Virus record (IMG/VR): IMGVR_UViG_3300011005_000053
Reading direction: 5' to 3' (one strand)
DNA: 64,000 nt
Source: a virus
Position numbers and translations under genes: made by a program. Shown in pieces: positions 33,236 through 52,557 of this stretch (positions are counted from its first letter, which is position 1; every line of letters begins with the position of its first letter). The notes beneath the pieces were generated by a model. It had not been told where the DNA came from and searched no databases. It saw only the letters and a list, made by a program, of their open reading frames with translations.

Positions 33236-33916
33236 TTGGAAAATAATAAAGCAAAAGAGATATTCGACACGCTGTTTGCGGTCGATGTAAGTCAGTATAC
33301 CGACGCCCGAAAGGGCCTGACGTATCTTCCTTGGAGCCACGCACTGTCCGAAGTGATGAAGCTCTATCCGGATATGAGTTACAGCATCCGGCGTTTCGGC
33401 CCGGATGAACTGCCGTACCAGTATGATCCGGTGCTTGGTTATATGGTTTTTACCACCGTGACCATCGGCGGTATCACAAAGGAAATGTGGCTGCCGGTAC
33501 TGGATACCAACAACAAGGCCATGAAGGCCGACCCGTATACATATGATACGAAGACTACAAAGGGAATCCGGGTAGAGGCCGCGACCTTCTACGACATCAA
33601 CAAGGCGCTGATGCGCTGCCTTGTAAAGAACATCGCCGCGTTCGGCCTTGGTATGTACATCTATAACAAAGACGACCTGCCCGAGGCTGTCACCGAGGAA
33701 CAGGAAAGAGCAGCAGAGGAGCTCGCCGCCGCCATCAAGCGTGTTGTAGCCGCCGGCACGAAACTGATCAAGGCCGGTTATTCCAAGGAAGAGATGTACG
33801 CTGTTGTGGAGCGCATTAACGGCAACAAGCAGCCCAACACGATCCCCAGTGTCGAAGTCGCCAAGCAGATCGAAGATGAATTCGCCAACATGATGAAGAA
33901 GAAAGAGGGAAAGTAA
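33236..33916 (+). CDS. Rad52/Sak-like single-strand annealing protein
   Basis: GLTYLPWSHALSEVMKLYPDMSYSIRRFG and a conserved core typical of phage Sak / Rad52-22 annealases. TTG start without an SD. Confidence 0.6.
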   Translation: MENNKAKEIFDTLFAVDVSQYTDARKGLTYLPWSHALSEVMKLYPDMSYSIRRFGPDELPYQYDPVLGYMVFTTVTIGGITKEMWLPVLDTNNKAMKADPYTYDTKTTKGIRVEAATFYDINKALMRCLVKNIAAFGLGMYIYNKDDLPEAVTEEQERAAEELAAAIKRVVAAGTKLIKAGYSKEEMYAVVERINGNKQPNTIPSVEVAKQIEDEFANMMKKKEGK

Positions 33917-33917
33917 G

Positions 33918-34307
33918 ATGTTTTGGGTAACGAACAAGTACGCAAAGGTCTGGAAGATTTTCGGTGTGGACGGCAAGTACGCTGATATGAACATCAGCAC
34001 GTCCGAAAAGAAACAGGATGGCACTTATGCCAACAGCTCCTGGCCCGCAAGAGCCATCGGCCATGCCCTCCAGCAGGTGAAGACCGGTAAGATCAAAGAG
34101 GGTAATACATACGCCATCACGCAGGCCAAGGTGTCCAACGAATCTTATAAGGATAAAGACGGCAATTGGAAAAACAATCTCCGTCTGCTCGTGATGGAAT
34201 TTGGTCCTTCCGGCGCTGACGGCCAGAATGCTAAGCCGAAGGCCGCCACGCCCACCAAGGGTGTTGATGTTTCCGCCGCTAACGACGATGAGGAAGAGCC
34301 TTGGTAA
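33918..34307 (+). CDS. ssb: single-stranded DNA-binding protein (OB fold) with acidic C-terminal tip
   Basis: ~129 aa, ends DDEEEPW. Sits next to the annealase. Confidence 0.55.
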   Translation: MFWVTNKYAKVWKIFGVDGKYADMNISTSEKKQDGTYANSSWPARAIGHALQQVKTGKIKEGNTYAITQAKVSNESYKDKDGNWKNNLRLLVMEFGPSGADGQNAKPKAATPTKGVDVSAANDDEEEPW

Positions 34308-35050
34308 ACGCCAAAGGCCAGACCGTCTACTCTTATTCTCAGCTCAACACCTTTGAGCAATGCCCGTACAGTTGGTTCAAGATCTATAAGGAAAAGGCGC
34401 CGCGAGAAAACAACGCCTTTTCCTCGTACGGAACTTTGATCCACGAGCTGCTCCAGCAGTGTGCATGCGGTGATTTGAAACGGGAAGATCTGGCCGAGCT
34501 TTTTGAATGGAGCTACGAGGCCAGCATCCCGGAGGAATTTCCTCCGAACAAATATGTCAATCTGCACGACAGCTATTTGCAACAGGGCATTGATTTCTTC
34601 CATAACTTCGAGGGTTTCGATGATCTCGAAATCCTCGGGGTCGAGGATCATTTTGAAATCGACATGGGCGATTTCGCCCTGCAGGGTTTCATCGACCTGA
34701 TCTACCGGGACAAAAACGGCAAGCTGGTGTGCCGTGACTGGAAGAGCGGGAAGCGGTGGACGAAAAAGGATATCGCCGAACATGGCAAACAGCCGTACTT
34801 ATATTCGGCCTACATCAAAGAGAAATTTGGCCGCTACCCGGACAGGCTTGAGTTCTTCCATTTCCGTGAAGGCAACAAGAAATCGGTCATTCCGTTCAAC
34901 ATTAAGGACTTCCACGCCGCTGAACAGTGGGCGCGTGATACGGTAAAAGCCATTAACGAAACATGGGATTACGCCAGTCATTACGATGAGTTCTTCTGTA
35001 AGGAATTGTGCTCCTGCCGGAGCTCCTGCGATCAAAAGAAAAAGGGGTGA
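34301..35050 (+). CDS. PD-(D/E)xK exonuclease with C-terminal Cys cluster (Cas4/RecB-like)
   Basis: N-terminal YSYSQLNTFEQCPYSWFKIY and C-terminal CKELCSCRSSC (Fe-S-like). TTG start overlapping the ssb stop. Confidence 0.6.
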   Translation: MVNAKGQTVYSYSQLNTFEQCPYSWFKIYKEKAPRENNAFSSYGTLIHELLQQCACGDLKREDLAELFEWSYEASIPEEFPPNKYVNLHDSYLQQGIDFFHNFEGFDDLEILGVEDHFEIDMGDFALQGFIDLIYRDKNGKLVCRDWKSGKRWTKKDIAEHGKQPYLYSAYIKEKFGRYPDRLEFFHFREGNKKSVIPFNIKDFHAAEQWARDTVKAINETWDYASHYDEFFCKELCSCRSSCDQKKKG

Positions 35051-35055
35051 TTTTA

Positions 35056-35259
35056 ATGAAGAGAAGATGGCTTTCTATTCTCTCTGAGGTCTTATGTGTT
35101 CTATGTCTGATTATGGAAAACGTGATTCTGACCACACAATATCATGTGTCGTGGCTCGTGTGCGCCGGTATTTGCTGCCTGGCAGTCATGTGGGCTTTGA
35201 ACGGAGCCGCGTTGATGATCGACCTGATTAATAAATGGGATAAAGAAGGGCGAGAATGA
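35056..35259 (+). CDS. small two-TM membrane protein
   Basis: AAAGGGGTGATTTTA then ATG. Confidence 0.5.
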   Translation: MKRRWLSILSEVLCVLCLIMENVILTTQYHVSWLVCAGICCLAVMWALNGAALMIDLINKWDKEGRE

Positions 35260-35549
35260 TTCAAACAGAATTCAGGCGTTATACGCCAATCGTAGACGGA
35301 TTTCAGATCCGCGATGTTACATATGTGGACGGCCGCGTCGATGAATACCCGGAACTGTACGACATCGTGAAGTGGAACGGTGATTATTGCTACACAGTCG
35401 CCACGCTGAAATGGAACGCTCATGAGCCATGCTTTGAGTTCCAGTCCTGCGGTATGCGCTGGCTTGAGGCCGAGCCTACAGAGCGCGTCATTATCATGGT
35501 CAAGCGTTTCGCGTCCATGGCTCACTGCTGGATGGAGGACGCGGAATGA
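35256..35549 (+). CDS. hypothetical protein
   Basis: ATGA overlap. Confidence 0.5.
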   Translation: MIQTEFRRYTPIVDGFQIRDVTYVDGRVDEYPELYDIVKWNGDYCYTVATLKWNAHEPCFEFQSCGMRWLEAEPTERVIIMVKRFASMAHCWMEDAE

Positions 35550-35899
35550 ATCTGAAAGATGAAACGTTGGAGATCATGGCAGAACACGGCAAAACAAAAG
35601 AGGACATTGTCTGGATCGGCTGCCGTGATTTCGCCATTGGCCCGGCTACTTTTTGGAGACTGGCTGATCGTATGTACGACAGCGGATATGGATGGCAGGA
35701 AGTCGCCACCGATCTCCTTGTCGTTGGCGACAACTGGTGGATGGAACGGCATGAATATGACGGTTCTGAATGGTGGGAATATAAAGAGCCTCCGAAAATG
35801 CCGTTTGTATGTAAAGATGTACAGCGCATTATTCGCGGCCCTAACCAGACTGGCTGGAGCAAACTGGCTGAAATGAATGAGGAGGGGAAGCAGGAATGA
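35546..35899 (+). CDS. hypothetical protein
   Basis: ATGA overlap. Confidence 0.5.
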   Translation: MNLKDETLEIMAEHGKTKEDIVWIGCRDFAIGPATFWRLADRMYDSGYGWQEVATDLLVVGDNWWMERHEYDGSEWWEYKEPPKMPFVCKDVQRIIRGPNQTGWSKLAEMNEEGKQE

Positions 35900-36225
35900 A
35901 TCGGGCACAGCGACGCAAATTCGACAAAGCGGTTGGTTTCGATGGGGCTTCTGCGGTAGCAGAGGCTTTGCAAAACGAAATGAAGATTCCGGACGGCGCA
36001 AAGGTAAAACTGAACGTAGATCAAATCACCGCCCGTAAAGACTATCGCTCGAAGCTTCCGGCATACCAGGATTTTGTTGTCAGGAATCGCGACACCGTAT
36101 TCACCGCACGTCGTGTCTGGCCCACGAAGCGCCATAGCTTTCTGGAGCTGGAAGAGGATACGACAAAGCCGAAATGGTTATGGTGGGACGGCGACCTGAT
36201 TGTAGTGGAGGAGGAAGGCACATGA
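35896..36225 (+). CDS. hypothetical protein
   Basis: ATGA overlap. Confidence 0.5.
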   Translation: MNRAQRRKFDKAVGFDGASAVAEALQNEMKIPDGAKVKLNVDQITARKDYRSKLPAYQDFVVRNRDTVFTARRVWPTKRHSFLELEEDTTKPKWLWWDGDLIVVEEEGT

Positions 36226-36773
36226 TTCAAAAGATTCGTAAGGGAGTGTTCGAGACGAACAGCTCCAGCACCCACAGCATCGTCATCAGCAAAGCGCCTG
36301 TGCGTTTTCTGCCGAGCAAGGTGACCTTCCGTACAGACGAATATGGCTGGGAAAACAATTGCGTAGACGACACAGCCAGATATCTCTTCACCGGCATCCT
36401 GGACGGACCGCGGTCTCTGCGGAGCATGCGCATCGAGCGTCTTGAAAAACTGCTGGAAGAGCTCGGCGTCGAATACGAATTCGTTTATCCGGCATATAAC
36501 GCCGAGTACGACTGCTACGACTGCTATGTCGACCACAGCTATGAACTCAGTGAGTTTATCGACGCGGTTCTGGCCGATAAGGATCTGCTGGCCCGCTATC
36601 TCTTTGGTGATAGTTGTATCTATACCGGCAACGACAATCAGGACTGTGTGCCGGATGGCTGTAATATCGGCGACGAAACCATTTGGAAATATGACGATAG
36701 CGGCAAATATTCCGAGATGCCAAATCCTTATCACGACGAAGAGCACTATCAGTATTTTGTAAAGGGGAATTGA
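36222..36773 (+). CDS. hypothetical protein, paralog A (N-terminal MIQKIRKGVFETNSSSTHSI; Cys/Tyr/Asp-rich C-terminus)
   Basis: GAGGAGGAAGGCAC then ATG. The first 21 aa are near-identical to the next gene. Confidence 0.55.
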   Translation: MIQKIRKGVFETNSSSTHSIVISKAPVRFLPSKVTFRTDEYGWENNCVDDTARYLFTGILDGPRSLRSMRIERLEKLLEELGVEYEFVYPAYNAEYDCYDCYVDHSYELSEFIDAVLADKDLLARYLFGDSCIYTGNDNQDCVPDGCNIGDETIWKYDDSGKYSEMPNPYHDEEHYQYFVKGN

Positions 36774-36774
36774 T

Positions 36775-37134
36775 ATGATTCAGATCCGGCGCGGTGTCTT
36801 TGAAACGAACAGCAGTTCGACCCACTCCATCACGATGTGTATGAAATCGGACTTTGATGAGTGGAAAAATGGTCATATTTACTATAATGAGGGCTATCCC
36901 AGCAAACAATTTATGCAAAAAGACGAAGCTTTTGAGCTTTTGAGAAGCGATAAGTGGGATCCTGTTTCGGAACCTGAAAAGTTATCGGAGGACGAGCTTC
37001 TGGCAATTATGCGCGAACACGAAATCTATACGTATGACACGTATTATTACGAGTACCTGGAATGGTATGACGACTCGTTTACGACGCCGTCCGGCGAGAC
37101 GGTGGTAGCATTCGGCTGGTACGGCCACGACTAA
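36775..37134 (+). CDS. hypothetical protein, paralog B (N-terminal MIQIRRGVFETNSSSTHSI; Tyr/Asp/Glu-rich)
   Basis: Same N-terminal motif as 36222-36773. Confidence 0.55.
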   Translation: MIQIRRGVFETNSSSTHSITMCMKSDFDEWKNGHIYYNEGYPSKQFMQKDEAFELLRSDKWDPVSEPEKLSEDELLAIMREHEIYTYDTYYYEYLEWYDDSFTTPSGETVVAFGWYGHD

Positions 37135-37146
37135 GGAGGAATTTGG

Positions 37147-38028
37147 ATGAAAGTTCTCGGCTCTTATCAAAATGGCAACTATTCCGTAACCATCTGGGAT
37201 GACGGCACCAAGGTAAGGCAAACGTGCGGTACCGCTTTTGAGCCGACGAAGCCCGAATCCATGGATCTCAAAATCACAAACCGCTGTGATATGGGTTGCC
37301 CCATGTGTCACGAAGATTCCACGCCCGGCGGCGCCCACGGCGATATCCTGAATCTTCCGTTTCTGGATACGCTGCTGCCGTACACAGAGATTGCCATCGG
37401 CGGCGGCAACCCGCTGAGCCATCCAGACCTGACGCAGTTCCTGCGGCTTCTGAAATCAAAACGGCTGATCGCCAATATGACGGTCAACGCCGCGCATTTC
37501 ATTCGGGACTTTGACCGCATTAAGCAGCTGTCGGACGACGGCTATATCCACGGTCTGGGCGTGTCTGTCACGTACATGACCAACGATCTGCTGGATAAAC
37601 TGCGCCAGATCCCAAACGTGGTACTGCACGTGATCAACGGCGTGATTACAGTCGATGAACTCAGGATGATGTATGACAAGGGACTTAAGCTTTTGATCCT
37701 CGGCTACAAGGATTTTCGTCGCGGCGTTGCGGCGCATAAACCGGATACTGACCTGAATATGGCCCATCTGTACGCGGAACTTCCGGAGCTCGTAAAACAT
37801 TTTGAGGTCGTGAGTTTTGACAATCTGGCGATTCGTCAGCTCGACCCGAAGCGCCTGATGAGTGAAGAGGAATGGAATGAATTCTATATGGGCGACGACG
37901 GTCAGTTCACGATGTACGTGGACGCCGTTTTCAGAGAGTTCGCCAAAAGCAGTGTGTCAACCGAGCGTTGGCCGCTGATGGACGAGATCGAGCCTATGTT
38001 CCGGCTGGTCCGAAACGAACAGAGATAA
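37147..38028 (+). CDS. radical SAM enzyme (CxxxCxxC)
   Basis: LKITNRCDMGCPMCHE cluster and a GGGNP glycine-rich segment. No SPASM Cys cluster. TAAGGAGGAATTTGG then ATG. Confidence 0.6.
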   Translation: MKVLGSYQNGNYSVTIWDDGTKVRQTCGTAFEPTKPESMDLKITNRCDMGCPMCHEDSTPGGAHGDILNLPFLDTLLPYTEIAIGGGNPLSHPDLTQFLRLLKSKRLIANMTVNAAHFIRDFDRIKQLSDDGYIHGLGVSVTYMTNDLLDKLRQIPNVVLHVINGVITVDELRMMYDKGLKLLILGYKDFRRGVAAHKPDTDLNMAHLYAELPELVKHFEVVSFDNLAIRQLDPKRLMSEEEWNEFYMGDDGQFTMYVDAVFREFAKSSVSTERWPLMDEIEPMFRLVRNEQR

Positions 38029-38029
38029 C

Positions 38030-38340
38030 AGAAATAAATTGCGGTGGCGGAATAGACATATTTGCGTTGAGGTACTTAACAGAAAACCGGCCCATGGATC
38101 AGGGCGCAGGAATGGCATTGAGTGAAAAGGCAAATATGGTAAAGGCGGCTGATGCGCACAGCGCCGGACAGTTAATCCGGATAAGCCAAGAGTAGACGCA
38201 TAGTTGACGGTCTCAGGCTGACGTGAGGAAGGGGTTCGAGTCCCCAAGTCTCCGGGTTCGACTCCCGGGGGCGCAAGGTGCAATAACGTCAGTATGCAGG
38301 GTGCAAATCCCTGCCCGCAATTTTATACACACAACAAAGT
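38030..38340 (+). other. 310-bp non-coding region with two tandem tRNA T-arm-like hairpins and an anticodon-arm-like hairpin (tRNA-like element or pseudo-tRNAs)
   Basis: GGGGTTCGAGTCCCC at 38231-38245 and CCGGGTTCGACTCCCGG at 38252-38268. CCGGA-CAGTTAA-TCCGG hairpin at 38165-38181. CTGACGT and ACGTCAG flank the region. I could not fold a canonical cloverleaf. Confidence 0.35.
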
Positions 38341-38356
38341 TTAAGGAGGTGACCCA

Positions 38357-38629
38357 ATGCCAGAAAGATTGAAATATGAATTCAATGAAGTGCGCCGCCT
38401 GTTGGTATCGCTGCTGCGCCGTGATATGGAAGAAGATGGCGAGACTGCTGATGAGGAACCGTGTCAACTGATTCCGTCTTGTGACACGGAAAATGATGTA
38501 TACCATCTTACGCTGGCGTATCACGTCGGGCCGGAACCGCGAGAAGTGGTATGGCACGGCGACTCGTGGGAGGATGTTCTGCAGAAATGTAAGGCCGACG
38601 TTGTGCGTCGGGCCTTTCAATTGCTTTAA
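38357..38629 (+). CDS. hypothetical protein
   Basis: TTTAAGGAGGTGACCCA then ATG. Confidence 0.55.
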   Translation: MPERLKYEFNEVRRLLVSLLRRDMEEDGETADEEPCQLIPSCDTENDVYHLTLAYHVGPEPREVVWHGDSWEDVLQKCKADVVRRAFQLL

Positions 38630-38714
38630 CGCGACCTGAAAGTAAAAGGAGGGCGGTACCATTTTAGTTGATCCTAAAAAAATACAGGAAGCGAAAGAAA
38701 AACTCGGCGACGAG

Positions 38715-40595
38715 ATGGCTTTGATGATCCGCGACGAGTTGGAAATCGAAGATTTTGACGAGAGAAATTTGAAGTGCTGCTGCCCGTTTCATAATGAAGA
38801 CCATGTGTCTTTCATCTGGAACCCGAAATCGCTCAGTTTCCATTGCTTTGGGTCGTGCGGCCGCAGTTATGACATCATCGACATCTATATGCATAAGGGC
38901 CTGACCTATCTGGAAGCTTGCGACAAGCTCTTTCAGACGGCGAAGATCCCATATACCTTCGGCGAGCGCAAAGTCAGAACGAAACGCGCTTACCGCTATC
39001 CGAAAGAAGTGATCTGTACGGACAAAACACAGGTGTATCACTACCTGTCACTCCGTAAGATCAGCCCGGAAACAGCGGATTACCTTGACATTCGACAGGA
39101 CGAAGAGGGGAATTGCGTGTTCAACTACTACGACGCCAACGACACGCTGACCATGGTGAAGTATCGTCCGTCCCACAGAATCGAAAAGGGACAGTCAAAA
39201 AACTGGTGTCAGGAAAACGCGGACACGGCGCCGATCCTCTTCAATATGAACCGCATCAACCCGGATCAGCCGCTTCTGATCTGCTCCGGAGAGCTGGACT
39301 GCGCGGCAGCCGTGGAAGCCGGATGGAAAAACGCTGTGTCGATCCCGCTCGGAGATCAGAACCTCCATTGGGTGCAGGAGTGTTACGACTGGCTCGAACA
39401 GTTCCAGAGTATTATCATCTGTCCGGATAACGACGAGTCGGGAACTAAGTACCAGAAAACGGTCGTGCCGATGCTCGGCGCATGGCGCACCAAAACGATC
39501 CATCTGCCGACCACGGTTATCAACAAACGCGGCGAAGAACAACCCCTAAAAGACCTGAATGAGCTCCTGTATCACAGCGGCAAAGAAGCCGTGATCGACG
39601 CCATCCTCTCGGCGGAAGACAGCCCCGTGGCCTCTGTCGTGGATCTGTCCGAGATACAGGCGACCGATTATGAAGATGTGGATGGGGTGCAATTCGGTCT
39701 CAAGCCTCTGGACGACAACCTCCTTCGTCTGTTTTTCGGAACCCTGACCGTTATCTCCGGCCGACCCGGTTCCGGTAAGAGCAGTTTGATCTCCCAGCTT
39801 GTGTGCAACGCTCTTGACCAGGGTATCAATACCTGGCTCTACAGCGGCGAACTGCCCAACTCCGTAGAAAAAAGCTGGTTCAATTACATATTTGCAGGGC
39901 CGCGCAACGTGGAAGATTCCGTATCCACACGCGGCGACGCCTATAAACGCATCACAAACAAAACGATCGCGGCCATCAACGAGAAATATAAAGGCCGTTG
40001 GTATATCTACCGCGACGACGGCGATAACACTCTCGACAGTCTGCTGGATTCCATGACGAATTCGGTACGCAAGTACGCAACGAAGCTGCTGATCCTCGAC
40101 AACTTCATGTGTATCGACACCGAGAATAGCGATAGCGAGCTGAAAGCGCAGACCGACACTATTAAAAAGCTTATCCTCTTTGCCCGCCGATACGATTGCG
40201 CCGTAATTCTTGTGGCGCACCCGCGAAAGCTCTCCACAAAAGACGGCGGCGCGGAAATCGGCCTCGACGATATCGCCGGCACATCGAACATAGCCAATCT
40301 GGCCCACCGTACAATCTCCATGCGCCGCGTGACCGACGCCGACCGTGACAATGCGGCACGCTTTTCTCCACGCCGCCGGGCTCTGCTGGGCTGCGATGTG
40401 CTTGTAACGATTCTGAAAGACCGCATGTTCGGTCGCTCCAATATTGAGCTCGGCCTGTACTACGACCCGGCGTCACGCCGCTTCTTTTCCGACGATGAGG
40501 AATACGATCATCAGTATTTATGGGATACCAATCTTTATGACGGCTGCCTGAGCAGCGGTCGCAACTATGACGCAGAGGAGGTGTTCGGCGATTAA
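38715..40595 (+). CDS. primase-helicase (zinc-binding plus Toprim plus DnaB-like ATPase)
   Basis: CCCPFHNEDH...FHCFGSCG zinc finger. Toprim LLICSGELD...IIICPDNDESG. Walker A GRPGSGKSS and Walker B LLILDNF. Possible ATT start at 38661 after AAAGGAGGG. Confidence 0.8.
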   Translation: MALMIRDELEIEDFDERNLKCCCPFHNEDHVSFIWNPKSLSFHCFGSCGRSYDIIDIYMHKGLTYLEACDKLFQTAKIPYTFGERKVRTKRAYRYPKEVICTDKTQVYHYLSLRKISPETADYLDIRQDEEGNCVFNYYDANDTLTMVKYRPSHRIEKGQSKNWCQENADTAPILFNMNRINPDQPLLICSGELDCAAAVEAGWKNAVSIPLGDQNLHWVQECYDWLEQFQSIIICPDNDESGTKYQKTVVPMLGAWRTKTIHLPTTVINKRGEEQPLKDLNELLYHSGKEAVIDAILSAEDSPVASVVDLSEIQATDYEDVDGVQFGLKPLDDNLLRLFFGTLTVISGRPGSGKSSLISQLVCNALDQGINTWLYSGELPNSVEKSWFNYIFAGPRNVEDSVSTRGDAYKRITNKTIAAINEKYKGRWYIYRDDGDNTLDSLLDSMTNSVRKYATKLLILDNFMCIDTENSDSELKAQTDTIKKLILFARRYDCAVILVAHPRKLSTKDGGAEIGLDDIAGTSNIANLAHRTISMRRVTDADRDNAARFSPRRRALLGCDVLVTILKDRMFGRSNIELGLYYDPASRRFFSDDEEYDHQYLWDTNLYDGCLSSGRNYDAEEVFGD

Positions 40596-43500
40596 TTACA
40601 CAGTTACGCATCTTCACTCCGATTACAGCTTACTCGACAGCACAACACGCTTTTCTGATTACATAGCCAGAGCGAAAGAGCTTGGTCAGACCGCCATCGC
40701 CTCTACCGAGCACGGGCTTCCGCGTGGATGGGTGCGTAAGAAAATGGCCTGCGACGCCGCCGGAATTAAGTTTATCCACGGCGTAGAGATCTATCTGACG
40801 GAGGCTCTGGAACAGCGAGATCCGGAAACCGGTGAGATGAAAAAGGTGCGCGACAACTACCACACGATCCTGCTGGCAAAGAATTGGGATGGTGTTCTTG
40901 AGCTTAACAATGCCGTATCGCGTTCCGCCCAGCCGGATCATTTCTATTTTACCAACCGCATGACCTTCGATGAGTTCCTGCGTCTCTCGCCGAACATCCT
41001 TACGACGAGCGCCTGTCTGGCGTCTCCTCTTAACAAGCTGCCCATCGACCATCCTTACTACAAAAAGCTGATAGACCGCTATGATTTTCTGGAGATCCAG
41101 CCGCATAATGACCCGGATCAAAAAGCTTTTAACGTTCATCTGGCGTCCTTGGCCGCGCAGTATCACAAGCCGCTGATCGTCGGCACAGATACGCACAGCC
41201 TGAATGCTTATCATCGTGACTGCCGCGCCATTCTGACCGGAGCAAAGCGGAAGAGCTATGACGACGACACCTTTGATCTGACCTACAAATCCTATGAGGA
41301 ATTGGTCGAGATGTTCCGGGAGCAGGACATCCTGCCGGAGTCCGTGTATATGGACGCGATCAACAACACCAATGTGGCGGCAGATATGTGCGAGAACTGG
41401 ACGCTGGACACCTCTCTGAAATACCCGATCCTCTACGGTTCGCAGGAAGAAGACAAGAAAAAGCTGGTCGAAGTCACATGGAAAAACCTTGATAAGAAAC
41501 TCGCCGACGGTGTGATCCCGACGGAACAGGAGCAGGGTTTTCGGGACGCCATCAACGAAGAGCTCCGTGTTTTTGAAAAGGTACAGATGTCTGGTTTCAT
41601 GCTCAGCATGAGCGAGCTGATCACATGGTGTAAGGAAAATGGCATTCCGGTCGGCCCGTCTCGCGGCTCTGTCGGCGGTTCCCGCGTGGCGTATGTGGAC
41701 AACATCACTGACCTGAATCCGGAGCAGTGGCACACGGTATTCTCGCGCTTCTGCAATGAAGATCGTGTCGAAGTGGGTGATATCGATGTCGATGTGATCG
41801 ACACAGACAGACCCAAAATTTTTGAATATATCATTGGCCGGTTCGGCCAGAGCAAAACCGCCCGCGTCCCGTCCTACGGGACAATCAAGGCAAGGGGCGT
41901 CGTAGACGAGGTCTGCCGCGCAAAGATGTATGAGTGGAACGAGACTCACGGTCTACGCTTCGACGACCGCACACAGGAGAATCCGTACTGTTACGCTGCT
42001 GCCGATAAGCTGAAAGATATGCTCCCGGACGACGCGGACAGCGCCATGGATAACGCCGTCAAGAAAGGAACCATCGACGAAATCGAGTGGCTCCAAGAGC
42101 TTAAGCGGAAGAAGCCTGACGTGTTTCAGTATTTCGACGGACTGTGGGGTGTGAAGATCAGCCAGTCTGTTCACCCGGCCGGTATGGTCATCAGCCCTGT
42201 CACGCTGCCGGATCATTACGGTACGTTTGAAAAAGACGGCGACCAGTGCCTGATGATCGATATGGACGAGATTCATGACTGCGGTCTTGTCAAGTATGAC
42301 TTTCTGGTGCTGAGCAATATCGGCATCATTCGCGACGCATTCGCCTATGCCGGGAAACCGTATCCGAAGATGAACGAGATCAATTGGAACGACCAAAAGG
42401 TGTACGAAGACATGGTTCGCTCTCCTGTCGGCATCTTCCAGTTCGAGGGCGATTACGCTATGCGACTGCTCAGTCAGTTCCAGCCAAAATCGATTTTCGA
42501 TGTGACGATCGTCACCGCTTGTATCCGCCCGTCCGGTGCTTCTTACCGCGATGCCCTGATCTCGCGTAAGCCACATCGCAACCCCTCCAAGCTGATCGAT
42601 GACCTGCTGTCCGATAACAACGGTTATCTGGTCTATCAGGAAGATATCATTAAGTTCCTGCAGGTCGTGTGCGGCCTGACAGGTAGTGAGGCTGATACGG
42701 TACGGCGCGGCATCGCCCGCAAGAAACCGGAGATCCTGGAGGCGGCTCTGCCGAAGATCCTTGATGGTTATTGCTCCAAATCCCCGCACAATCGCGAAGA
42801 TGCGGAGGAGGAGGCAAAAGAGTTTCTGCAGATCATAGAGGACGCTTCGTCTTACATGTTTGGCCTGAATCATGCAATCGGTTACTCTCTGCTTTCCTAC
42901 ATCTGCGCATATCTTCGCTGCTACTATCCATTGGAATTTATCACTTCTTACTTAAACCACGCCGCCAATGACGATGACATTAAAAACGGCTCAGAGCTTG
43001 CAGAACTGTATAAGATCAAGATCCTGCCGCCGCAGTACGGTGAATCCACAGACATCTACTTCTTCGACCGCGACAAAAACGTAATCTACAAAGGCGTCGG
43101 TTCTATCCGCGATCTGAATAAGCAGGTCTCACGCGACCTCTATGAGCTGTCCAAAACAAATCCGACCGATTCCTTTATCGAGCTGCTCGGGCTGATGAAG
43201 GAACACACAACGCTGCGCTCCAACCAACTGGACAACCTCATCAAGGTCGATTACTTCCGGCAGTACGGCAACATTCCGACTCTGACGCGTATGCTTGACC
43301 TTTACCGTTTTCTCAAAGAGGGGGAGGCCAAGAGTTTTAACAAAGACCGCATCACGCCGGCTATGGCAGAGTTCATCGCGCCGTATGCTACCGATGTCAA
43401 TGCCAAGGGCGAGACGCTGAAAACTTATAAGATTACCGACATGCCAGGACTGCTGAAACATGTGGAGGAAACGGTGCTGGCAATGGATCTGCCGGACCTC

Positions 43501-43821
43501 GACCTTAAAACGAAAATCGCTAATCAGAAAGATATGCTCGGCTATGTGTCCGAAGTAACCGGGTTGCCGGAGGACAGAACAAAGTTGATCGCTCTGGAAG
43601 TCCGTCCGCTCATCAGCGCAAGAACGCGCAACCCGTGGGCTTACAGCGTCAATACGCAGTCTCTCGGCACAGGCAAGCAGAGCAACATGACAGTGGAAGC
43701 GCGGCAGTTCCGTAAGCACCCGTTCGCGCAGTTCGACATTTTACATACGTCGATTCGCGGTGTCAGCAAAGACCATAAGGGCTACTGGCATCTGAACGAA
43801 TACACGGTGGAGAGAGGATGA
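40567..43821 (+). CDS. DNA polymerase III alpha-type (DnaE-like) replicative polymerase with N-terminal PHP domain
   Basis: THLHSDYSLLDSTTRF and STEHG PHP motifs, 1084 aa. The track ATG at 40567 lies inside the primase gene. AGAGGAGGTG plus 7 nt then ATT at 40591 overlaps the primase stop (ATTAA). Confidence 0.8.
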   Translation: MTQRRCSAINYTVTHLHSDYSLLDSTTRFSDYIARAKELGQTAIASTEHGLPRGWVRKKMACDAAGIKFIHGVEIYLTEALEQRDPETGEMKKVRDNYHTILLAKNWDGVLELNNAVSRSAQPDHFYFTNRMTFDEFLRLSPNILTTSACLASPLNKLPIDHPYYKKLIDRYDFLEIQPHNDPDQKAFNVHLASLAAQYHKPLIVGTDTHSLNAYHRDCRAILTGAKRKSYDDDTFDLTYKSYEELVEMFREQDILPESVYMDAINNTNVAADMCENWTLDTSLKYPILYGSQEEDKKKLVEVTWKNLDKKLADGVIPTEQEQGFRDAINEELRVFEKVQMSGFMLSMSELITWCKENGIPVGPSRGSVGGSRVAYVDNITDLNPEQWHTVFSRFCNEDRVEVGDIDVDVIDTDRPKIFEYIIGRFGQSKTARVPSYGTIKARGVVDEVCRAKMYEWNETHGLRFDDRTQENPYCYAAADKLKDMLPDDADSAMDNAVKKGTIDEIEWLQELKRKKPDVFQYFDGLWGVKISQSVHPAGMVISPVTLPDHYGTFEKDGDQCLMIDMDEIHDCGLVKYDFLVLSNIGIIRDAFAYAGKPYPKMNEINWNDQKVYEDMVRSPVGIFQFEGDYAMRLLSQFQPKSIFDVTIVTACIRPSGASYRDALISRKPHRNPSKLIDDLLSDNNGYLVYQEDIIKFLQVVCGLTGSEADTVRRGIARKKPEILEAALPKILDGYCSKSPHNREDAEEEAKEFLQIIEDASSYMFGLNHAIGYSLLSYICAYLRCYYPLEFITSYLNHAANDDDIKNGSELAELYKIKILPPQYGESTDIYFFDRDKNVIYKGVGSIRDLNKQVSRDLYELSKTNPTDSFIELLGLMKEHTTLRSNQLDNLIKVDYFRQYGNIPTLTRMLDLYRFLKEGEAKSFNKDRITPAMAEFIAPYATDVNAKGETLKTYKITDMPGLLKHVEETVLAMDLPDLDLKTKIANQKDMLGYVSEVTGLPEDRTKLIALEVRPLISARTRNPWAYSVNTQSLGTGKQSNMTVEARQFRKHPFAQFDILHTSIRGVSKDHKGYWHLNEYTVERG

Positions 43822-45305: not shown

Positions 45306-45902
45306 ATGACAATCCTTTTTGATTTTGACGACGTACTGAACGATCTGAGCAAGTGTTTTATCCAGGAGCTGAATCGTGAGTACGGCAAGCAGGTTCAATG
45401 GGAAAGCGTCTCCGAATTTGAAATCGGAGAATCGTTTCCAGACTTATCCGATTATCAGATCTATACGCCATATCTGGATGGAACGCTTTATCTGGACGCC
45501 CATCCGGAACAAGGAGCGCAAAACCTTCTGCACGATCTGGCGCAAAAGCACACCATATATATTGTGACGGCCGGCCTGCTGGCTCTGCCTGAAACCACGC
45601 TGTATGAGTACATGTGGGACGGCAACCCGGTCAACAGCACCGAGTATATGCTGCGTTTTCTTGGTGAGTATTATCCCGATGTTCACCCGCAGAACATTGT
45701 GATGACCACCAATAAAACCATGATTCGCGGCGATGCCCTGATCGACGACCGGCCGCAGAACCTGATCGGGTTTCGCGGTTTGAAGATCCTGATGGATAAG
45801 CCGTACAACCACACGTTTGATACGGAGCGTCACAACATACACAGAGCTTATACATATGACGACGTGAAAACTATTTTGACGGAGGAACTTGGCATTGAGT
45901 GA
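45306..45902 (+). CDS. HAD-family 5'(3')-deoxyribonucleotidase-like
   Basis: MTILFDFDDVLND DxDx motif. Confidence 0.55.
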   Translation: MTILFDFDDVLNDLSKCFIQELNREYGKQVQWESVSEFEIGESFPDLSDYQIYTPYLDGTLYLDAHPEQGAQNLLHDLAQKHTIYIVTAGLLALPETTLYEYMWDGNPVNSTEYMLRFLGEYYPDVHPQNIVMTTNKTMIRGDALIDDRPQNLIGFRGLKILMDKPYNHTFDTERHNIHRAYTYDDVKTILTEELGIE

Positions 45903-46209
45903 TAAATATCTGGGATTTGTCGATCGGTATTTAAGCGACGAAGAGCTCGCCGCCTTCTACAGCGATCTTACGTTTAATCGCTTCGATCTGTTCCGAAACG
46001 AATATCTGCTCCTCACAGATATTGATGGCAACACGATCGATACATACCGCTGGAACGGCGAAACGCATGTCCGCGTTCCGACCAAGCAGATCAAAACCAG
46101 ATATCTTGGTACGATCCGCCCCCGCAACCCGCAGCAGGTATGCGCGATCGATATGCTTTACAACACGGATATGACCGTCAAAATGCTACAGGGGCCTTTT
46201 GGCTCGGGT
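45895..46209 (+). CDS. phoH: PhoH-like ATPase, exon 1 (ends within Walker A GPFGSGK)
   Basis: IRPRNPQQVCAIDMLYNTDMTVKMLQGPFGSGK matches the PhoH N-terminus and P-loop. The reading frame then falls into an insertion. Start TTG at 45889 or 45895. Confidence 0.6.
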
Positions 46210-47324
46210 AAAATCTTGCCCCGCCGCGCGGCAACGCTCGGTTGACAATCTTGTAAATTGCTGGAACACCCTGAGAGCCGCACAGACCACAGCGTGAGGA
46301 TGAAACGCCTGGGCGCGATGGTGTGAAAACAGTGCGGATTGGGCAATCAGCAGCCAAGCCCCGAATAGGGGAAGGTTCAACGACTATCCATAAGGAGTAG
46401 GGCGCAAGCCCGAAAAACAAGACGACCCGATATATTGCCATTAAACAACGGGAGGTGAAAGAGTGACAAAGAGGACATGGACACAAGAGCAGGTTGACGA
46501 CATTGTTCATATGTATACCGTCCAGCGCTGTACACAAAAAGTGATCGCGGCAAAGTATAGCGCCAAAGTACAAACTATCAGTGGCATCCTAAAAGCTCAT
46601 AACGTTTCTATCAACTATCGCAAGGGCGCAAATCGCCATATGAACGATCAGTATTTCGATGTAGTTGATTCTGCTGAAAAGGCGTACTTCTTGGGATTAT
46701 TATTAACCGACGGAAGCGTGATTTATGATGCTGAGCGCATTAGGCAGCCAGAAATCAGCATTGAGCTTATAGAGAGTGACGTCGAGATCTTGCACAGACT
46801 GCGTGACGCGATCGGGTTGAGCACCAAGCTGTGCTATGCAAAGCGAGCAGGCAGAAAACATGGTACATATACTCTGAAATTTCGATCGGCGCACATGGCG
46901 TCTACTCTTGCTGCTTATCATATCGTGCAAGATAAAACCCATCGCGTTCGCGTACTGCCACAAAATATCCCCGAACAATATATGAAAGATTATGTTCGTG
47001 GATTAATTGACGGTGATGGCAGTATTTATTTTAGCCAAGGGTCATGGCACATCAATTATTGCGGTCACTTTCAATCACTGGTACGCGATGTCGGAAATGT
47101 GTGCTGCAGCATGATCGGGAGAGATGCACCGCTCAAAATCCAGGTGAGCGATAATGTATACCGTATAACGTTTAATGGTGCGTGGGCACAAAAATTGGCG
47201 TCGGCGCTTTATGATAACGCAGATATTGCAATTGCTCGTAAATACCGTTTGGCAATAGCGGCAATGCGAGGATAATAGGGTCGAAGATATAGTCTAACCC
47301 TCGCCGAAAGGCGAGGTAGCAGTG
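46210..47324 (+). mobile_element. group I intron in phoH carrying a LAGLIDADG homing endonuclease
   Basis: The 5' exon ends ...TCGGGT (U). A GCCC(C)G guide-like element follows the junction. GACTATCC at ~46400 and ATAGTC at ~47288 are P7-like strands. The intron ends in G. Exon 2 has no RBS. Junction positions are approximate. Confidence 0.55.
46463..47275 (+). CDS. LAGLIDADG homing endonuclease
   Basis: Two motifs, YFLGLLLTDGS and VRGLIDGDGSIY. AT-richer codon usage. Confidence 0.75.
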   Translation: MTKRTWTQEQVDDIVHMYTVQRCTQKVIAAKYSAKVQTISGILKAHNVSINYRKGANRHMNDQYFDVVDSAEKAYFLGLLLTDGSVIYDAERIRQPEISIELIESDVEILHRLRDAIGLSTKLCYAKRAGRKHGTYTLKFRSAHMASTLAAYHIVQDKTHRVRVLPQNIPEQYMKDYVRGLIDGDGSIYFSQGSWHINYCGHFQSLVRDVGNVCCSMIGRDAPLKIQVSDNVYRITFNGAWAQKLASALYDNADIAIARKYRLAIAAMRG

Positions 47325-47840
47325 AAAGATTTGTTAATGTCTACAGTAGCTCTGGACATGCTTGACAAAAACAAGTTTGACAAGACCGTCTATGTGCGCA
47401 ACAACATCGAGGTCAAGGACTCCAAGCCGATCGGTTTTCTGCCCGGCACAGACAAAGATAAACTCCTCCCTTACGCGATGCCTTTAGCCGACCATATGGG
47501 CGGCGTCAGCGGCATTGAATTTATGATGAGCCAGGGGCAGTTGGAGATCGTTCATCTTGGATTTATCCGGGGCCGCGATATCAAGGACGCCATCATCTAC
47601 GTTCCCGAAGCGGAGAATATGACAAAAGAACATATTCAGCTTCTGCTCGGACGAGTAGGTGAGGGGTCTCAGCTCTGGATCAACGGCGACTACCGTCAGG
47701 TGGACGCAGAAGTTTTTGTAAAGAACAGTGGTCTTGCGGCCGCCGCAGACCGCTTAAAGGGCCATCCTCGCTTTGGCCTCGTGACGCTGATCAAAACGGA
47801 ACGAAGCGAAACAGCGGCTATGGCCGATCTTTTGGATTGA
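47325..47840 (+). CDS. phoH: PhoH-like ATPase, exon 2
   Basis: IGFLPGTDKDKLLPY...IYVPEAENMTKEHIQLLLGRVGEGSQLWINGDYRQVD matches the PhoH core. Open from 47298 with no start signal. Confidence 0.6.
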   Translation, partial: KDLLMSTVALDMLDKNKFDKTVYVRNNIEVKDSKPIGFLPGTDKDKLLPYAMPLADHMGGVSGIEFMMSQGQLEIVHLGFIRGRDIKDAIIYVPEAENMTKEHIQLLLGRVGEGSQLWINGDYRQVDAEVFVKNSGLAAAADRLKGHPRFGLVTLIKTERSETAAMADLLD

Positions 47841-49021: not shown

Positions 49022-49543
49022 ATGCAGATTGAGCTGAAACTTTCAAAGGACTTTGAGCGTTGCTTAAACGATCTCCGCAACAAGTACGGTGAAGATTTTG
49101 AAATTTTGAACGGGGTACATCCGAGTCAATTGGATTTTTCGGAATTCATCGACAACTTCGTGGACAAAAAGACGCTGGCTGACGCCAGCATCGACCCCAA
49201 CGCCAATGCCAACCATAAGGACATCCGCAGCTTTATGACGGAGAAGGCCAAGAGCGAAGACAAGCTGTTTGGACTGAACAAGATTTTTACGGAGATCAAG
49301 AAGCGCTGGGGGCTGCGGACAGCCAAGCAGTGGTTAGAGCAGGAATTCAGCAAGGGTTTTTATCTGAACGACAGCACGACCGCCAGTTATTTCCCTTATT
49401 GCTGGGCGAACGACTTTACGCGCCTCGCCAAAGAGGGCCTGTTCTTCCTTGGCAATTATAACAACGAGGGGCCGAAACATTTGACCACGTATTTTGATGA
49501 TGTGATCGAGTTTGTCAGCTTCCTCTCAAATCGCCAGTCGGGT
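49022..49543 (+). CDS. nrdD: anaerobic ribonucleoside-triphosphate reductase NrdD, exon 1
   Basis: FPYCWANDF...GPKHLTTYFDDVIEFVSFLSNRQSG matches the NrdD N-terminal region. The frame then enters the intron. Confidence 0.7.
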
Positions 49544-50662
49544 AGAAAACGCTGTGCCCGTTTGTCGCTTTTCCACATCATCAGTGGGGTCAATTTTCTT
49601 ATTGGCTAACGGTGAAAGCTAAACAGTATATGCAAGCTAATACCGTGGGAATCGCCTCCCAATGTCCTAAGAAAGATATATACGTAATCAAAAACCGAAT
49701 CAATGATAAGGTTTATGTCGGGCAATCCATTAATGCCGCCGATCGCTTTATAAAACATTGCAAGCCAAGTGCTGCAAAAGACAATTCGTTGATCGATAAG
49801 GCGATACAAAAATATGGCGCAGAAAATTTCTGGTACGAGGTTCTTGAAAGCCAGGTGGAAAATTACAACGATCGTGAGCGATTTTGGATCGAACAGCTTC
49901 ATTCGTTAATTCCTGGTGGATACAATATGCTCCCAGGAGGCGAAGAACCGCCTGTACATCGTTCTATTGATCATCCGCTATCGTCGTTTGACAGTCTTGA
50001 TGAAGTGAAAAAAATCAAAACCGAGCTTCGTACTACAAAACTTAGTTTAGCGGATATTGCAAAACTGCATAACACGTCAAAGAGAACTGTCATGCGTATC
50101 AATCAGGGGCTTCATTATGAGGAGCTTGGTGAAACATATCCAATTCGTGTAACACCTAATTTGTGCGGAAAGCTGTCAGACGACCAAGTGGCTGACATTG
50201 TCGAGTTGCTGCGATATACATATCGACAATACGAAGACCTCGGTAAGCAATACGGCGTGTCTGTTTCTACCATCAAGCAAATCAATTCTGGAGAATGTCA
50301 CCCGCTTCCAGGTGTGCAATATCCAATACGCGCTTATAAAAACAGCGGCAAACCGACCTGCACATATGCACAGGTGACCGAGATTTCCGACTTATTAAAA
50401 AACACAACCATGTCTTGTAGACAAATTGCTAAATGTTATGGAATTGATTTACAAACCGTATATATCATTAATAATGGATCTGCAAAAAGATACCGACGTG
50501 CAGAGCTGACGTATCCTTTGCGCAAACACAATCAGGGGAGGCGACCCTGTATCGACTATCCCCGGTAAGGGGAGTACACCGGCTATTGATACGCCGGTGG
50601 AAAGAGCGACACCGCTGTTTGAGACAGCGGCAAAATATAGTCAGTCCCCGTGGAAACACGGG
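49544..50662 (+). mobile_element. group I intron in nrdD carrying a GIY-YIG homing endonuclease
   Basis: The 5' exon ends CAGTCGGGT (U). GCCCG follows. GACTATCC at ~50552 and ATAGTC at ~50638 are P7-like strands. The intron ends ...CACGGG. The junction is codon-aligned and gives SNRQSG-TPTAVGMPNV. Exon 2 has no RBS. Confidence 0.6.
49612..50568 (+). CDS. GIY-YIG homing endonuclease with C-terminal DNA-binding region
   Basis: KDIYVIKNRINDKVYVGQSINAADRFIKH is the GIY-YIG motif. AT-rich codon usage. Confidence 0.75.
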   Translation: MKAKQYMQANTVGIASQCPKKDIYVIKNRINDKVYVGQSINAADRFIKHCKPSAAKDNSLIDKAIQKYGAENFWYEVLESQVENYNDRERFWIEQLHSLIPGGYNMLPGGEEPPVHRSIDHPLSSFDSLDEVKKIKTELRTTKLSLADIAKLHNTSKRTVMRINQGLHYEELGETYPIRVTPNLCGKLSDDQVADIVELLRYTYRQYEDLGKQYGVSVSTIKQINSGECHPLPGVQYPIRAYKNSGKPTCTYAQVTEISDLLKNTTMSCRQIAKCYGIDLQTVYIINNGSAKRYRRAELTYPLRKHNQGRRPCIDYPR

Positions 50663-52075: not shown

Positions 52076-52557
52076 AGATACGCGGCATTCTCGCGGAGGA
52101 TTTTCAAAACTTCCGCCTGCCCTCCATGTATATCGCAACATCGTTGTGTGACTGGAAATGCTGCTGTGAACAGAATCTCGACCTTGGGGTGTGCCAAAAC
52201 GCACCCCTTGCGTCGAGCCCCATTATGGACGTGTCGTATGACGCCATCTTTGAGCTGTATCACCACAATGATATAAGCCGCGCCGTCGTGATCGGTGGTC
52301 TCGAACCCTTCCTGCAGTTCAACGACATTTTTGAGTTGATTCGTGTGTTTCGGGAGAGGGGAGAGATGTGTCCGTTTGTGATCTATACAGGTTACTACCC
52401 GGAAGAGATCGCCAATGAGCTGCGTTCCATACGACAGAGCTTTTCCAATATCATCGTAAAATTCGGTCGGTATATACCGGACCGTCCGGCGCGTTACGAC
52501 GACGTGCTCGGAATCACGTTGGCGTCTGATAACCAGTACGCCGAGGAGCTGTCATGA
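52072..52557 (+). CDS. nrdG: anaerobic RNR activating enzyme NrdG (radical SAM)
   Basis: SLCDWKCCCEQN Cys cluster. ATGA overlap with nrdD. Confidence 0.65.
   Translation: MKIRGILAEDFQNFRLPSMYIATSLCDWKCCCEQNLDLGVCQNAPLASSPIMDVSYDAIFELYHHNDISRAVVIGGLEPFLQFNDIFELIRVFRERGEMCPFVIYTGYYPEEIANELRSIRQSFSNIIVKFGRYIPDRPARYDDVLGITLASDNQYAEELS

Follow-up and report, generated by a model that had tools for sequence, protein, structure and literature searches.

Radical S-adenosylmethionine (radical SAM) enzymes that act together with protein partners have repeatedly yielded new chemistry, including formylglycine, glycyl radicals, pyrroloquinoline quinone (PQQ), mycofactocin and the crosslinks of peptides that are made ribosomally and modified after translation (RiPPs), and enzymes of this class with dedicated protein partners are a known kind. 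Here we describe a module of this kind in a 64,000-nucleotide stretch of viral DNA (IMG/VR record IMGVR_UViG_3300011005_000053, the whole of which is referred to below as the window), in which a radical SAM gene follows two genes whose products share a short, serine-rich N-terminal tag. The partner family was previously undescribed and the radical SAM subfamily is uncharacterized. The module is not a local oddity or duplication; it is widespread and undescribed in phages, and spans phages of Thermus, Rhodothermus, Microcystis, Salmonella, Prevotella and gut Bacillota.

Among the closest described systems, the anaerobic sulfatase-maturating enzymes (anSMEs) act on a residue within a short (C/S)-x-P-x-R motif of their clients, the sulfatases, and carry a SPASM domain with two auxiliary clusters. 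The activases of glycyl-radical enzymes, such as the pyruvate formate-lyase activating enzyme (PFL-AE) and NrdG, are small single-cluster enzymes whose clients carry a C-terminal RVxG motif, and a short motif is common there to a large enzyme and to a small spare-part protein of unrelated length, GrcA/YfiD. Radical SAM maturases of RiPPs (PqqE/PqqD, SuiB and SkfB) have a partner that is adjacent or N-terminally fused, and in systems with one enzyme and many precursors, such as the prochlorosins, a conserved N-terminal peptide precedes divergent remainders. Viperins, including the prokaryotic viperins (pVips), are single-cluster radical SAM enzymes that have no tagged partner.

The three genes of the locus

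The window is part of a large phage genome. The two tagged-protein genes and the radical SAM gene that follows them are all on the plus strand and closely spaced, with intergenic gaps of 1 and 12 nucleotides (nt), and a Shine–Dalgarno-like sequence (GGAGG or AAGGAGG) precedes each of the three. Gene calls made independently on the source contig (a metagenomic assembly of 94.8 kb) gave the same three products, of 183, 119 and 293 amino acids (aa), and a consensus scan revealed no promoter-like sites on the plus strand within positions 35000-38800. We refer to the larger partner and its relatives as A-type and to the smaller as B-type; the features are as follows.

36222..36773, plus strand: A-type tagged partner, 183 aa, with the tag, a GEFGW-like motif (EYGW, residues 40-43), D104-H105, G136-N137-D138-N139 and a KGN end.
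36222..36287, plus strand: N-terminal tag of the A-type protein, MIQKIRKGVFETNSSSTHSIVI, the sole region in common with the next gene by BLASTP and hhalign.
36531..36536, plus strand: invariant D104-H105 (DH) of the A-type domain, in the stand-alone, fused (D99-H100) and joint alignments.
36627..36638, plus strand: G136-N137-D138-N139 (GNDN) of the A-type domain, invariant or nearly so in the stand-alone, fused (GGNDN) and joint alignments.
36775..37134, plus strand: B-type tagged partner, 119 aa, with the tag, ...TMC...W..., a middle that varies and is acidic and aromatic, and a conserved ...VAFGWYGHD at the C-terminus.
36775..36837, plus strand: N-terminal tag of the B-type protein, MIQIRRGVFETNSSSTHSITM, from BLASTP, hhalign and a TNSSS scan.
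37147..38028, plus strand: radical SAM enzyme, 293 aa, in which the sequence pattern shows a single [4Fe-4S] motif and, at the N-terminal end, a conserved NGNY.V.I.DDGTK.R segment.
37285..37308, plus strand: cluster-binding motif C47-x3-C51-x2-C54 (CDMGCPMC), read from the sequence and matching the invariant Cys of the family alignment.

Linkage of the tagged proteins to the enzyme

Two censuses of IMG/VR were made, one led by the enzyme and one by the tag. In the first, 41 loci were retrieved with the radical SAM protein, and 36 of them carry between one and six tagged open reading frames (ORFs) on the same strand, nearly always immediately upstream. The second, a scan for ETNSSS[TSM]H, gave at least 599 stretches, of which 438 were confirmed and 80 loci kept; a radical SAM gene lies within 5 kb in 78 of the 80, and the two exceptions end at a contig end about 240 nt past the match. 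In most loci no more than about 40 nt separate the last tagged ORF from the start of the enzyme, and the spacing is often overlapping. In both censuses gut-phage lineages predominate, as do loci ranked by their similarity to the B-type tag, and with flanks of 4-6 kb 'absent' is to be read as absent nearby.

Among species-representative genomes the tag is present in 158 stretches, mostly from metagenome-assembled genomes (MAGs) of gut and rumen Bacillota, together with a few isolates (for example Eubacterium plexicaudatum ASF492 and Thomasclavelia cocleata DSM 1551), and the enzyme lies within 4 kb in 62 of 79 tagged loci. The remaining 17 comprise nine loci that a contig end cuts short and about eight that are flanked on each side by at least 3.4 kb; one of these eight has its radical SAM gene just past the flank and belongs to the L200/L180 array described below. 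We note that tag-bearing prophage-like loci are found in genomes of Lachnospiraceae and other Clostridia. All-against-all clustering of the neighbourhood ORFs leaves solely the radical SAM enzyme and the tagged proteins in common between lineages, and no protease, exporter or RiPP recognition element (RRE) co-occurs with the module among the clustered ORFs.

The window, both censuses and the mapping of fusions described below all contain a protein with R-x4-T-N-S-S-S in its first ~20 residues that is encoded no more than a few kb from, or is fused to, a radical SAM enzyme of the phrog_16999 type. Because the linkage runs in both directions, recurs in unrelated phage lineages and extends to natural fusions, the tagged proteins and the enzyme are, on these sequence comparisons, functionally coupled, a conclusion as well supported as comparative genomics allows.

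The N-terminal tag

An earlier note on this DNA had proposed that the genes at 36222 and 36775 share an N-terminal motif and then diverge, and both BLASTP and profile-profile comparison agree. The two proteins have in common only their first ~22 residues, MIQ(K)IR(K/R)GVFETNSSSTHSI: BLASTP aligns residues 1-22 alone, with 18 of the 22 identical (E 1e-8), and hhalign of the A-type against the B-type family finds 24 columns in common (probability 99.3%, E 3e-20). After the tag is trimmed there is no similarity between the families (hhalign probability 0.4%), and a weak 7-column alignment of GEyGW with FGyYGy is a hint only. In a six-frame translation of the window TNSSS occurs twice, at precisely these two N-termini.

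Among 312 distinct DNA contexts of FETNSSSxH, all six serine codons (from both the TCN and AGY boxes) occur at each of the three serine positions. Because every position draws on all six codons, the conservation of the tag is selected at the protein level and not as a DNA or RNA element, and the pattern fits serines that are individually essential. Across distant members the invariant core is R-x4-T-N-S-S-S; the Glu, His and Phe each vary, Gly8 is not invariant, and the tag is always within about 10 residues of the N-terminus. The first 13-15 residues are the most conserved part of the protein, yet their predicted local distance difference test (pLDDT) value falls below 50 in AlphaFold2 models both of the stand-alone A-type protein (residues 1-13) and of a natural fusion to the enzyme; in the fusion model residues 1-10 have a pLDDT of 29 and the tag is not placed against the radical SAM domain. 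As judged from the alignments and models, the tag bears the marks of a short linear motif, being invariant, small, polar, extremely N-terminal and unpacked. No occurrence of its strings (ETNSSS, TNSSSSH, NSSSTHS or similar) was found in the literature.

Distant members and natural fusions

In protein searches of phage records the larger protein and the radical SAM enzyme turned up jointly in the Prevotella Lak megaphages, in Microcystis phage Ma-LMM01 and in relatives of the latter. In Ma-LMM01, gp130 (start MLSIQVRQGVFETNSSSTHS) is encoded two genes upstream of the radical SAM protein gp128, and in Lak-A1 the enzyme is followed by five consecutive ORFs, each starting MK(I/V)QIRxGVFETNSSS(T/V)H. 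Rhodothermus phage RM378 encodes p106 (start MKAFIRFGLSTNSSSSHS, with CDH and GGNDN downstream) two genes after its radical SAM protein p108, and in Thermus phage phiYS40 the gene for YS40_162 (...VRLTSMTNSSSASM...) overlaps the start of that for the radical SAM protein YS40_161. In place of the tag Glu, the fused, RM378 and phiYS40 forms have Ala, Ser or Met.

In Salmonella phage Arash the two components form a single protein, gp146c, of 476 aa (positions 4431-5861 of locus L044), which starts MYLTQIRYGFATNSSSSHS and continues through GYIDH and GGNDN into a radical SAM domain with CDLACKFC, so that the A-type domain is N-terminal to the radical SAM domain. The GenBank name of gp146c, 'methyltransferase', is unsupported, with Pfam giving Radical_SAM and Fer4_12 and no methyltransferase or B12 domain, and the Arash genome paper makes no mention of the protein. 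A search with gp146c returned 726 proteins, and the 120 listed all have the same architecture, with lengths of 435-570 aa and 92-100% coverage; relatives include records labelled Methylobacterium ajmalii, Thermoanaerobaculia and Promethearchaeota, and the two genomic contexts of fused homologues that were inspected resemble plasmid or jumbo-phage DNA. The correspondence of the parts is clear from hhalign, in which the stand-alone A-type family matches the N-domain of the fusion (probability 98.7%, E 2e-16, 120 columns) and the split radical SAM family matches its C-domain (probability 100%, E 2e-39, 276 columns). The invariant columns of the fused family are G9, A11, N13, S14, S15, S16, H18, S19, D99, H100, S102, G130, G131 and D133, together with the radical SAM cysteines.

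A profile search of 1.84 billion cluster representatives (50% identity) gave 1,835 proteins at E 1e-30 or better, a number that measures the fused family and not all A domains, since the profile held the columns of both the A domain and the radical SAM domain. The best 150 of these 1,835 are all fused and full-length, most of about 435-545 aa and two longer ones with inteins, and the fused architecture, as read from these alignments, is present in at least 150 clusters and probably in about 1,800. The inteins of the two longer homologues (P0386 and P0473) are situated at catalytic sites of the radical SAM domain, one of them inside CxxxCxxC before the third Cys and the other, an intein with a LAGLIDADG domain, immediately ahead of the SAM-binding motif GGGE. 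Inteins are usually found in conserved sites of genes that are important to phages. Other radical SAM modules of phages were compared and set aside: a cluster of three radical SAM genes in Vibrio phage K566 has no tagged protein and belongs to a different family, and the thymidine-hypermodification enzymes (PMC5889632) and the DUF483 radical SAM module of Thermus phages (PMC11437467) each have a different gene set.

The tagged partner proteins

The A-type protein folds confidently outside the tag in its AlphaFold2 model (pLDDT 88.5; predicted template modelling score, pTM, 0.85), and the predicted fold has no known structural relative. None of its 719 homologues has a Pfam domain, its own searches of Pfam, NCBIfam and PDB sequences are empty, and no Pfam, NCBIfam or PADLOC family was found for the partner proteins generally, nor did literature searches turn up any mention of them. 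In the stand-alone alignment Y102 is nearly invariant and D104 and H105 are invariant, and the DH and GNDN motifs persist in the fusions. The earlier note had drawn attention to Cys/Tyr/Asp-rich stretches in both proteins, but these are not conserved apart from Y102, D104 and H105 of the larger protein, the middle of the small protein being variable.

Several likenesses of the A-type protein to known folds suggest themselves from the tag together with the DH and GNDN motifs, namely to the HAD fold (DxDxT ... GDxxND), to calcineurin-like metallophosphoesterases (DxH ... GNHD/E), to SGNH hydrolases (GDS ... GxND ... DxxH), and to the flavodoxin phosphate loop, Toprim and B12-binding domains. With Pfam, NCBIfam and PDB empty, none of them is supported, also because the Glu that would be the nucleophile varies in the fused, RM378 and phiYS40 forms. 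A hairpin likeness noticed by eye between the A-type tail (TIWKYDDSGKYSE) and the N-terminus of the radical SAM protein (VTIWDDGTKVRQ) has an hhalign probability of 0.8% and was likewise discarded.

The B-type family (73 unique sequences, 93-150 aa) is rich in acidic (21% D/E) and aromatic (16%) residues, and its conservation is restricted to the tag with ...TMC...W and to a C-terminal ...VAFG.YGYDG (FG.YGyd), with a variable, acidic and aromatic region between them. The window B-type protein matches phrog_28997 through residues 2-24 only, and in most loci the B-type gene is directly upstream of the radical SAM gene. Altogether the tagged proteins fall into at least 25 unrelated C-terminal classes of 93-320 aa, among which no Pfam domain or recognizable nucleic-acid-binding domain was found. 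Loci with only B-type partners exist (L007, L010, L029 and L030), as do loci with only A-type partners (Ma-LMM01, RM378 and the fusions), and because both occur the tag is the common denominator that accompanies the enzyme. The largest array, spread over about 14 kb in two adjacent stretches (L200 and L180) of one Fibrobacter MAG contig, has nine tandem tagged paralogues after one radical SAM gene.

Two other loci, L175 and L178, were noted along with this array. In L175, copies with decayed tags (FETNSSHEHS and FETSSSSEDS) lie beside the tagged paralogues. Several C-terminal classes contain a Cys-rich motif, CC.(R/H)YFC....L.(D/Y)C.C, that could bind metal.

The radical SAM enzyme

The reading of the third gene as a CxxxCxxC radical SAM protein holds: C47-x3-C51-x2-C54 can be read directly from the sequence and the product matches Pfam Radical_SAM, albeit barely over the cut-off (E 5.7e-7; 30.3 against 29.5 bits), with a much stronger match to phrog_16999 (E 4.6e-48). 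C47, C51 and C54 are the sole invariant cysteines in the family alignment, and because no Cys outside this triad is conserved the enzyme is without SPASM or twitch clusters. G85-G86-G87-N88-P89 (GGGNP) is invariant at the position of the GGE motif, where the fused family has GGGEP. Membership of the radical SAM superfamily is indicated by the CxxxCxxC and GGE-type motifs, the Pfam match and the similarity of the fusion model to radical SAM structures (E down to 4.5e-11). The window protein has 7,001 homologues.

None of the curated NCBIfam families is reached, the best being MoaA at 27 bits against a 284-bit cut-off. The scores with the NrdG model TIGR02826 (11.9 against 151.7 bits) and the viperin model NF038283 (11.2 against 180 bits) are far below threshold, no match to QueE is listed among NCBIfam results at E up to 1, sequence matches in the PDB are marginal (best E 0.007), and Pfam gives only Radical_SAM and Fer4_12, with no SPASM, PqqD or RRE. 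The curated-family, PDB and alignment searches thus bear out the suggestion that the enzyme is neither NrdG nor a SPASM protein, and also separate it from QueE, viperin and MoaA. A standard radical SAM family for the enzyme, together with a known fold for its partners, was looked for and not found.

In the AlphaFold2 fusion model (pLDDT 86, pTM 0.71) the Foldseek neighbours are SuiB (E 4.5e-11), SkfB, GDGT-MAS, BlsE, PqqE, viperins, EpeE, DesII, MoaA and anSME, with template modelling scores (TM-scores) of about 0.3-0.5 (about 0.5 for SuiB). The predicted structure of the radical SAM domain therefore has a generic position in the neighbourhood of the SPASM/twitch enzymes, viperin and MoaA. The PADLOC pVip hidden Markov model (HMM) matches the first ~100 residues of the fused radical SAM domain over profile positions 3-104 of 257 (E 3e-13).

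Possible functions of the module

We tentatively favour a role of the radical SAM enzyme as a protein maturase or activase that acts on the N-terminal tag of client proteins, because the tag resembles a linear motif and the enzyme is a single-cluster protein with an open structural neighbourhood. The enzyme, whether stand-alone or fused, would bind the flexible N-terminal R-x4-T-N-S-S-S-x-H-S of its partners and use a 5'-deoxyadenosyl radical to modify it, the modified residue most plausibly being the Asn or one of the three invariant serines. The A-type protein, a small alpha/beta domain with DH and GNDN, would be the ancestral client, its domain having become fused to the enzyme in many homologues, and the B-type and other classes would be lineage-specific extra clients with little beyond the tag on a minimal scaffold. 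We infer the entry of the tag into the active site, its chemical modification, the residue concerned and the roles of the products from sequence comparisons. A maturase is consistent with the pattern of one enzyme for up to 6-9 tagged proteins of at least 25 unrelated C-terminal classes, and with a Foldseek list that is led by modifiers of peptides and proteins (SuiB, SkfB, PqqE, EpeE and anSME), small-molecule enzymes (viperin, MoaA, BlsE and DesII) also being present. A function in DNA or nucleotide metabolism or in host takeover is hinted at by the replication and recombination genes around the module.

A more specific and rather unlikely form of this proposal is that the enzyme installs a new radical modification on the TNSSS tag, for example a Ser-derived electrophile or protein-derived cofactor, by a viperin-like dehydration or a DesII-like oxidation without auxiliary clusters, and that the tag is a portable maturation handle for diversifying effectors of host takeover or counter-defence (at least 25 classes, with as many as nine in one genome).

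Several points weigh against a maturase. Its support is comparative throughout; in the fusions a substrate in cis could be modified just once per polypeptide; the A domain retains DH and GNDN, motifs of an enzyme-like kind for which a mere substrate would have no use; and the tight or overlapping gene spacing fits a stoichiometric complex equally well. The enzyme lacks the auxiliary clusters that most protein-oxidizing and crosslinking radical SAM enzymes use, nucleotide- and sugar-modifying radical SAM enzymes are also among its structural neighbours, and about eight of the 79 tagged loci of species-representative genomes have near-complete flanks and no radical SAM gene within 4 kb. The lack of a placement for the tag in the AlphaFold2 models counts as weak evidence.

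The main alternative, possible if somewhat doubtful, is that the tagged proteins are non-substrate subunits of an obligate heteromeric or fused enzyme; TNSSS-x-HS would dock onto the radical SAM barrel so as to complete or close the active site. The tag could then, for example, bind a metal or the phosphates of a substrate that is a nucleotide or nucleic acid, the paralogues being interchangeable specificity or regulatory subunits and the true substrate a third molecule of DNA, RNA or nucleotide metabolism. In many folds phosphate is bound by hydroxyl-rich loops that follow an N-terminal strand, which is in favour of such a role, and the invariant polar motifs of the A domain (DH and GNDN) are typical of a ligand or metal site; B-only loci without DH and GNDN speak against it, however, and because of these loci the two motifs are not required for radical SAM function. 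Fusion in more than 1,800 clusters is a classic sign of the subunits of one enzyme, and very short or overlapping gene spacing also suits subunits, although as many as nine tagged paralogues with unrelated C-terminal parts per enzyme would be unusual for them and the tag is unplaced against the radical SAM domain even in the fusion model (pLDDT 29, residues 1-10). A substrate from nucleic-acid or nucleotide metabolism is suggested by the location of the module among replication, recombination and nucleotide genes in the window, Ma-LMM01, RM378 and Arash, by the presence of viperin, MoaA, BlsE and DesII among the structural neighbours and by the partial match to the pVip HMM; against this, neither a third conserved gene nor a recognizable nucleic-acid-binding domain was found in the loci and proteins compared.

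The earlier note had likened the locus to a precursor-plus-maturase (RiPP-like) pair. The functional coupling and the pattern of one enzyme with many tagged proteins survive from that suggestion; the RiPP system itself is not supported, with folded partners whose larger class keeps its own invariant motifs in the fusions as well, and with no protease, exporter or RRE. In a classical RiPP-like pathway the N-terminal ~20 residues would be the core (or leader), modified by the radical SAM enzyme, cleaved and released as a bioactive peptide or cofactor, with the remainder serving as follower or recognition domain. We consider this very unlikely, even though there are several precursor-like genes with a near-identical N-terminal peptide per enzyme, the maturases SuiB, SkfB and PqqE are top structural neighbours, and bottromycin, PQQ and mycofactocin are precedents for a core that stands N-terminal to its follower and for cofactors derived from peptides. 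The partners, at 93-320 aa, are proteins with confident folds and not short unstructured peptides, which upholds the caveat in the earlier note that they are large for precursors; no protease, transporter, RRE or SPASM/twitch Cys was found in the neighbourhoods and alignments; and one and the same product would have to come from phages of Thermus and of the gut alike, which would be atypical of a RiPP. Moreover, the fusion of enzyme and would-be precursor, present in thousands of homologues, would limit the enzyme to a single turnover, and because these fusions are so numerous a released peptide product is disfavoured.

It is hardly credible that the shared N-terminus is a targeting or processing signal independent of the enzyme (for capsid targeting, for prohead-protease cleavage after Glu as in the T4 internal proteins, or as a degron) to which the radical SAM gene is only incidentally adjacent: tandem divergent phage proteins with a short N-terminal tag do recall the T4 internal proteins, and V-F-E of the tag presumably fits the T4 protease consensus (L/I)-x-E, but the linkage to the enzyme persists where the virion modules of the phages are unrelated and also in the form of fusions, the Glu is replaced in the fused, RM378 and phiYS40 forms while TNSSS is invariant, and gp146c of Arash is outside the genes annotated as structural in its record.

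The invariant Ser-rich tag suggests a precise and testable site for the chemistry, and Salmonella phage Arash offers a culturable genetic system for the module. Should the tag be a modification handle, viruses would have a new class of protein maturation; should it be a subunit motif, the module would be a new two-domain radical SAM enzyme of phage nucleic-acid or nucleotide metabolism.

Genomic context

No DNA-level similarity of the window to any cultured phage was found. The module lies within a block of replication and recombination genes, and other recognizable features are listed here.

33236-33916: Sak single-strand annealing protein, replication/recombination block.
33918-34307: ORF resembling a single-stranded DNA-binding protein (SSB), by eye from the translation.
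34301-35050: PD-(D/E)XK nuclease, replication/recombination block.
38299..38316, plus strand: terminator-like hairpin followed by a T-run, a tentative 3' end of the transcription unit from a consensus scan whose counts are not above those of shuffled sequence, so that the evidence is positional only.
38715-40595: primase-helicase, replication/recombination block.
40567-43821: Pol III alpha-like ORF, replication/recombination block.
49022-49609 and 50597-52075, plus strand: NrdD, the anaerobic ribonucleotide reductase, split into two ORFs.
49612-50568, plus strand: 318-aa ORF inserted between the NrdD parts, GIY-YIG homing endonuclease-like by eye.
52036-52557, plus strand: NrdG-like gene, after the split NrdD.
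16363, 31176, 31465 and 31544: four tRNAs (Gln, Leu, Thr and Ile).
59186-60304, plus strand: tyrosine-integrase-like ORF, by eye.

The NrdD/NrdG-like pair at 49022-52557 agrees with the earlier note, which mentions an NrdG elsewhere. The integrase-like ORF and the four tRNAs point to a large phage that is or once was temperate and has an anaerobic Bacillota host. A P-loop ORF (GPFGSGK) at 45889-47840 on the plus strand, PhoH-like by eye, is broken by a group I intron (Rfam RF00028, 46200-47316, 69.7 bits) that holds a 270-aa ORF with LAGLIDADG-like motifs.

The radical SAM gene is followed on the plus strand by a 327-nt non-coding gap (38029-38356) that contains three consecutive T-arm-like hairpins, GGGGTTCGAGTCCCC, CCGGGTTCGACTCCCGG and CAGGGTGCAAATCCCTG, the third of which is followed by a T-run and scores as terminator-like. 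ARAGORN and Rfam searches of the gap are empty, and its minimum free energy is -105.7 kcal/mol (z = -1.95). It could represent tRNA remnants, an att-like site or an undescribed small RNA.

Comparison with known systems

In its logic the module resembles the anSME/sulfatase, glycyl-radical activase/GrcA and RRE-containing RiPP maturase systems, but it fails the defining features of each. The likeness to anSMEs is that a radical SAM enzyme acts on a Ser in a short invariant motif of folded clients, with several clients per maturase, an arrangement that is here proposed from sequence, and anSME is among the structural neighbours of the radical SAM domain. Unlike anSMEs, however, the enzyme has no Cys for auxiliary clusters, the motif is R-x4-TNSSS-x-HS at the extreme N-terminus and not (C/S)-x-P-x-R, and the putative clients are proteins other than sulfatases, with neither a Pfam domain nor a known fold.

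With PFL-AE and NrdG the enzyme shares its small size (~250-300 aa) and single cluster, and the tag recalls the motif common to glycyl-radical enzymes and GrcA/YfiD. Glycyl-radical pairs are also encoded by adjacent genes and phage-encoded pairs are known, the window having its own NrdD/NrdG; the tag, in contrast to the C-terminal RVxG motif, is N-terminal and has neither RVxG nor an invariant Gly. Viperins and pVips are likewise single-cluster enzymes of similar size, appear among the structural neighbours and are matched through the pVip HMM, but only the half that binds the cluster and SAM is alike, the match stopping short of the C-terminal half, which in viperins binds NTP, and the tagged partner has no counterpart there. 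The RiPP maturases PqqE/PqqD, SuiB and SkfB are the best Foldseek neighbours and share the adjacent or N-terminally fused partner, and the prochlorosin type of system shares the conserved N-terminal peptide with divergent remainders; what sets the module apart from them is that its partners are folded and that RRE, SPASM/twitch, protease and exporter are all missing from it.

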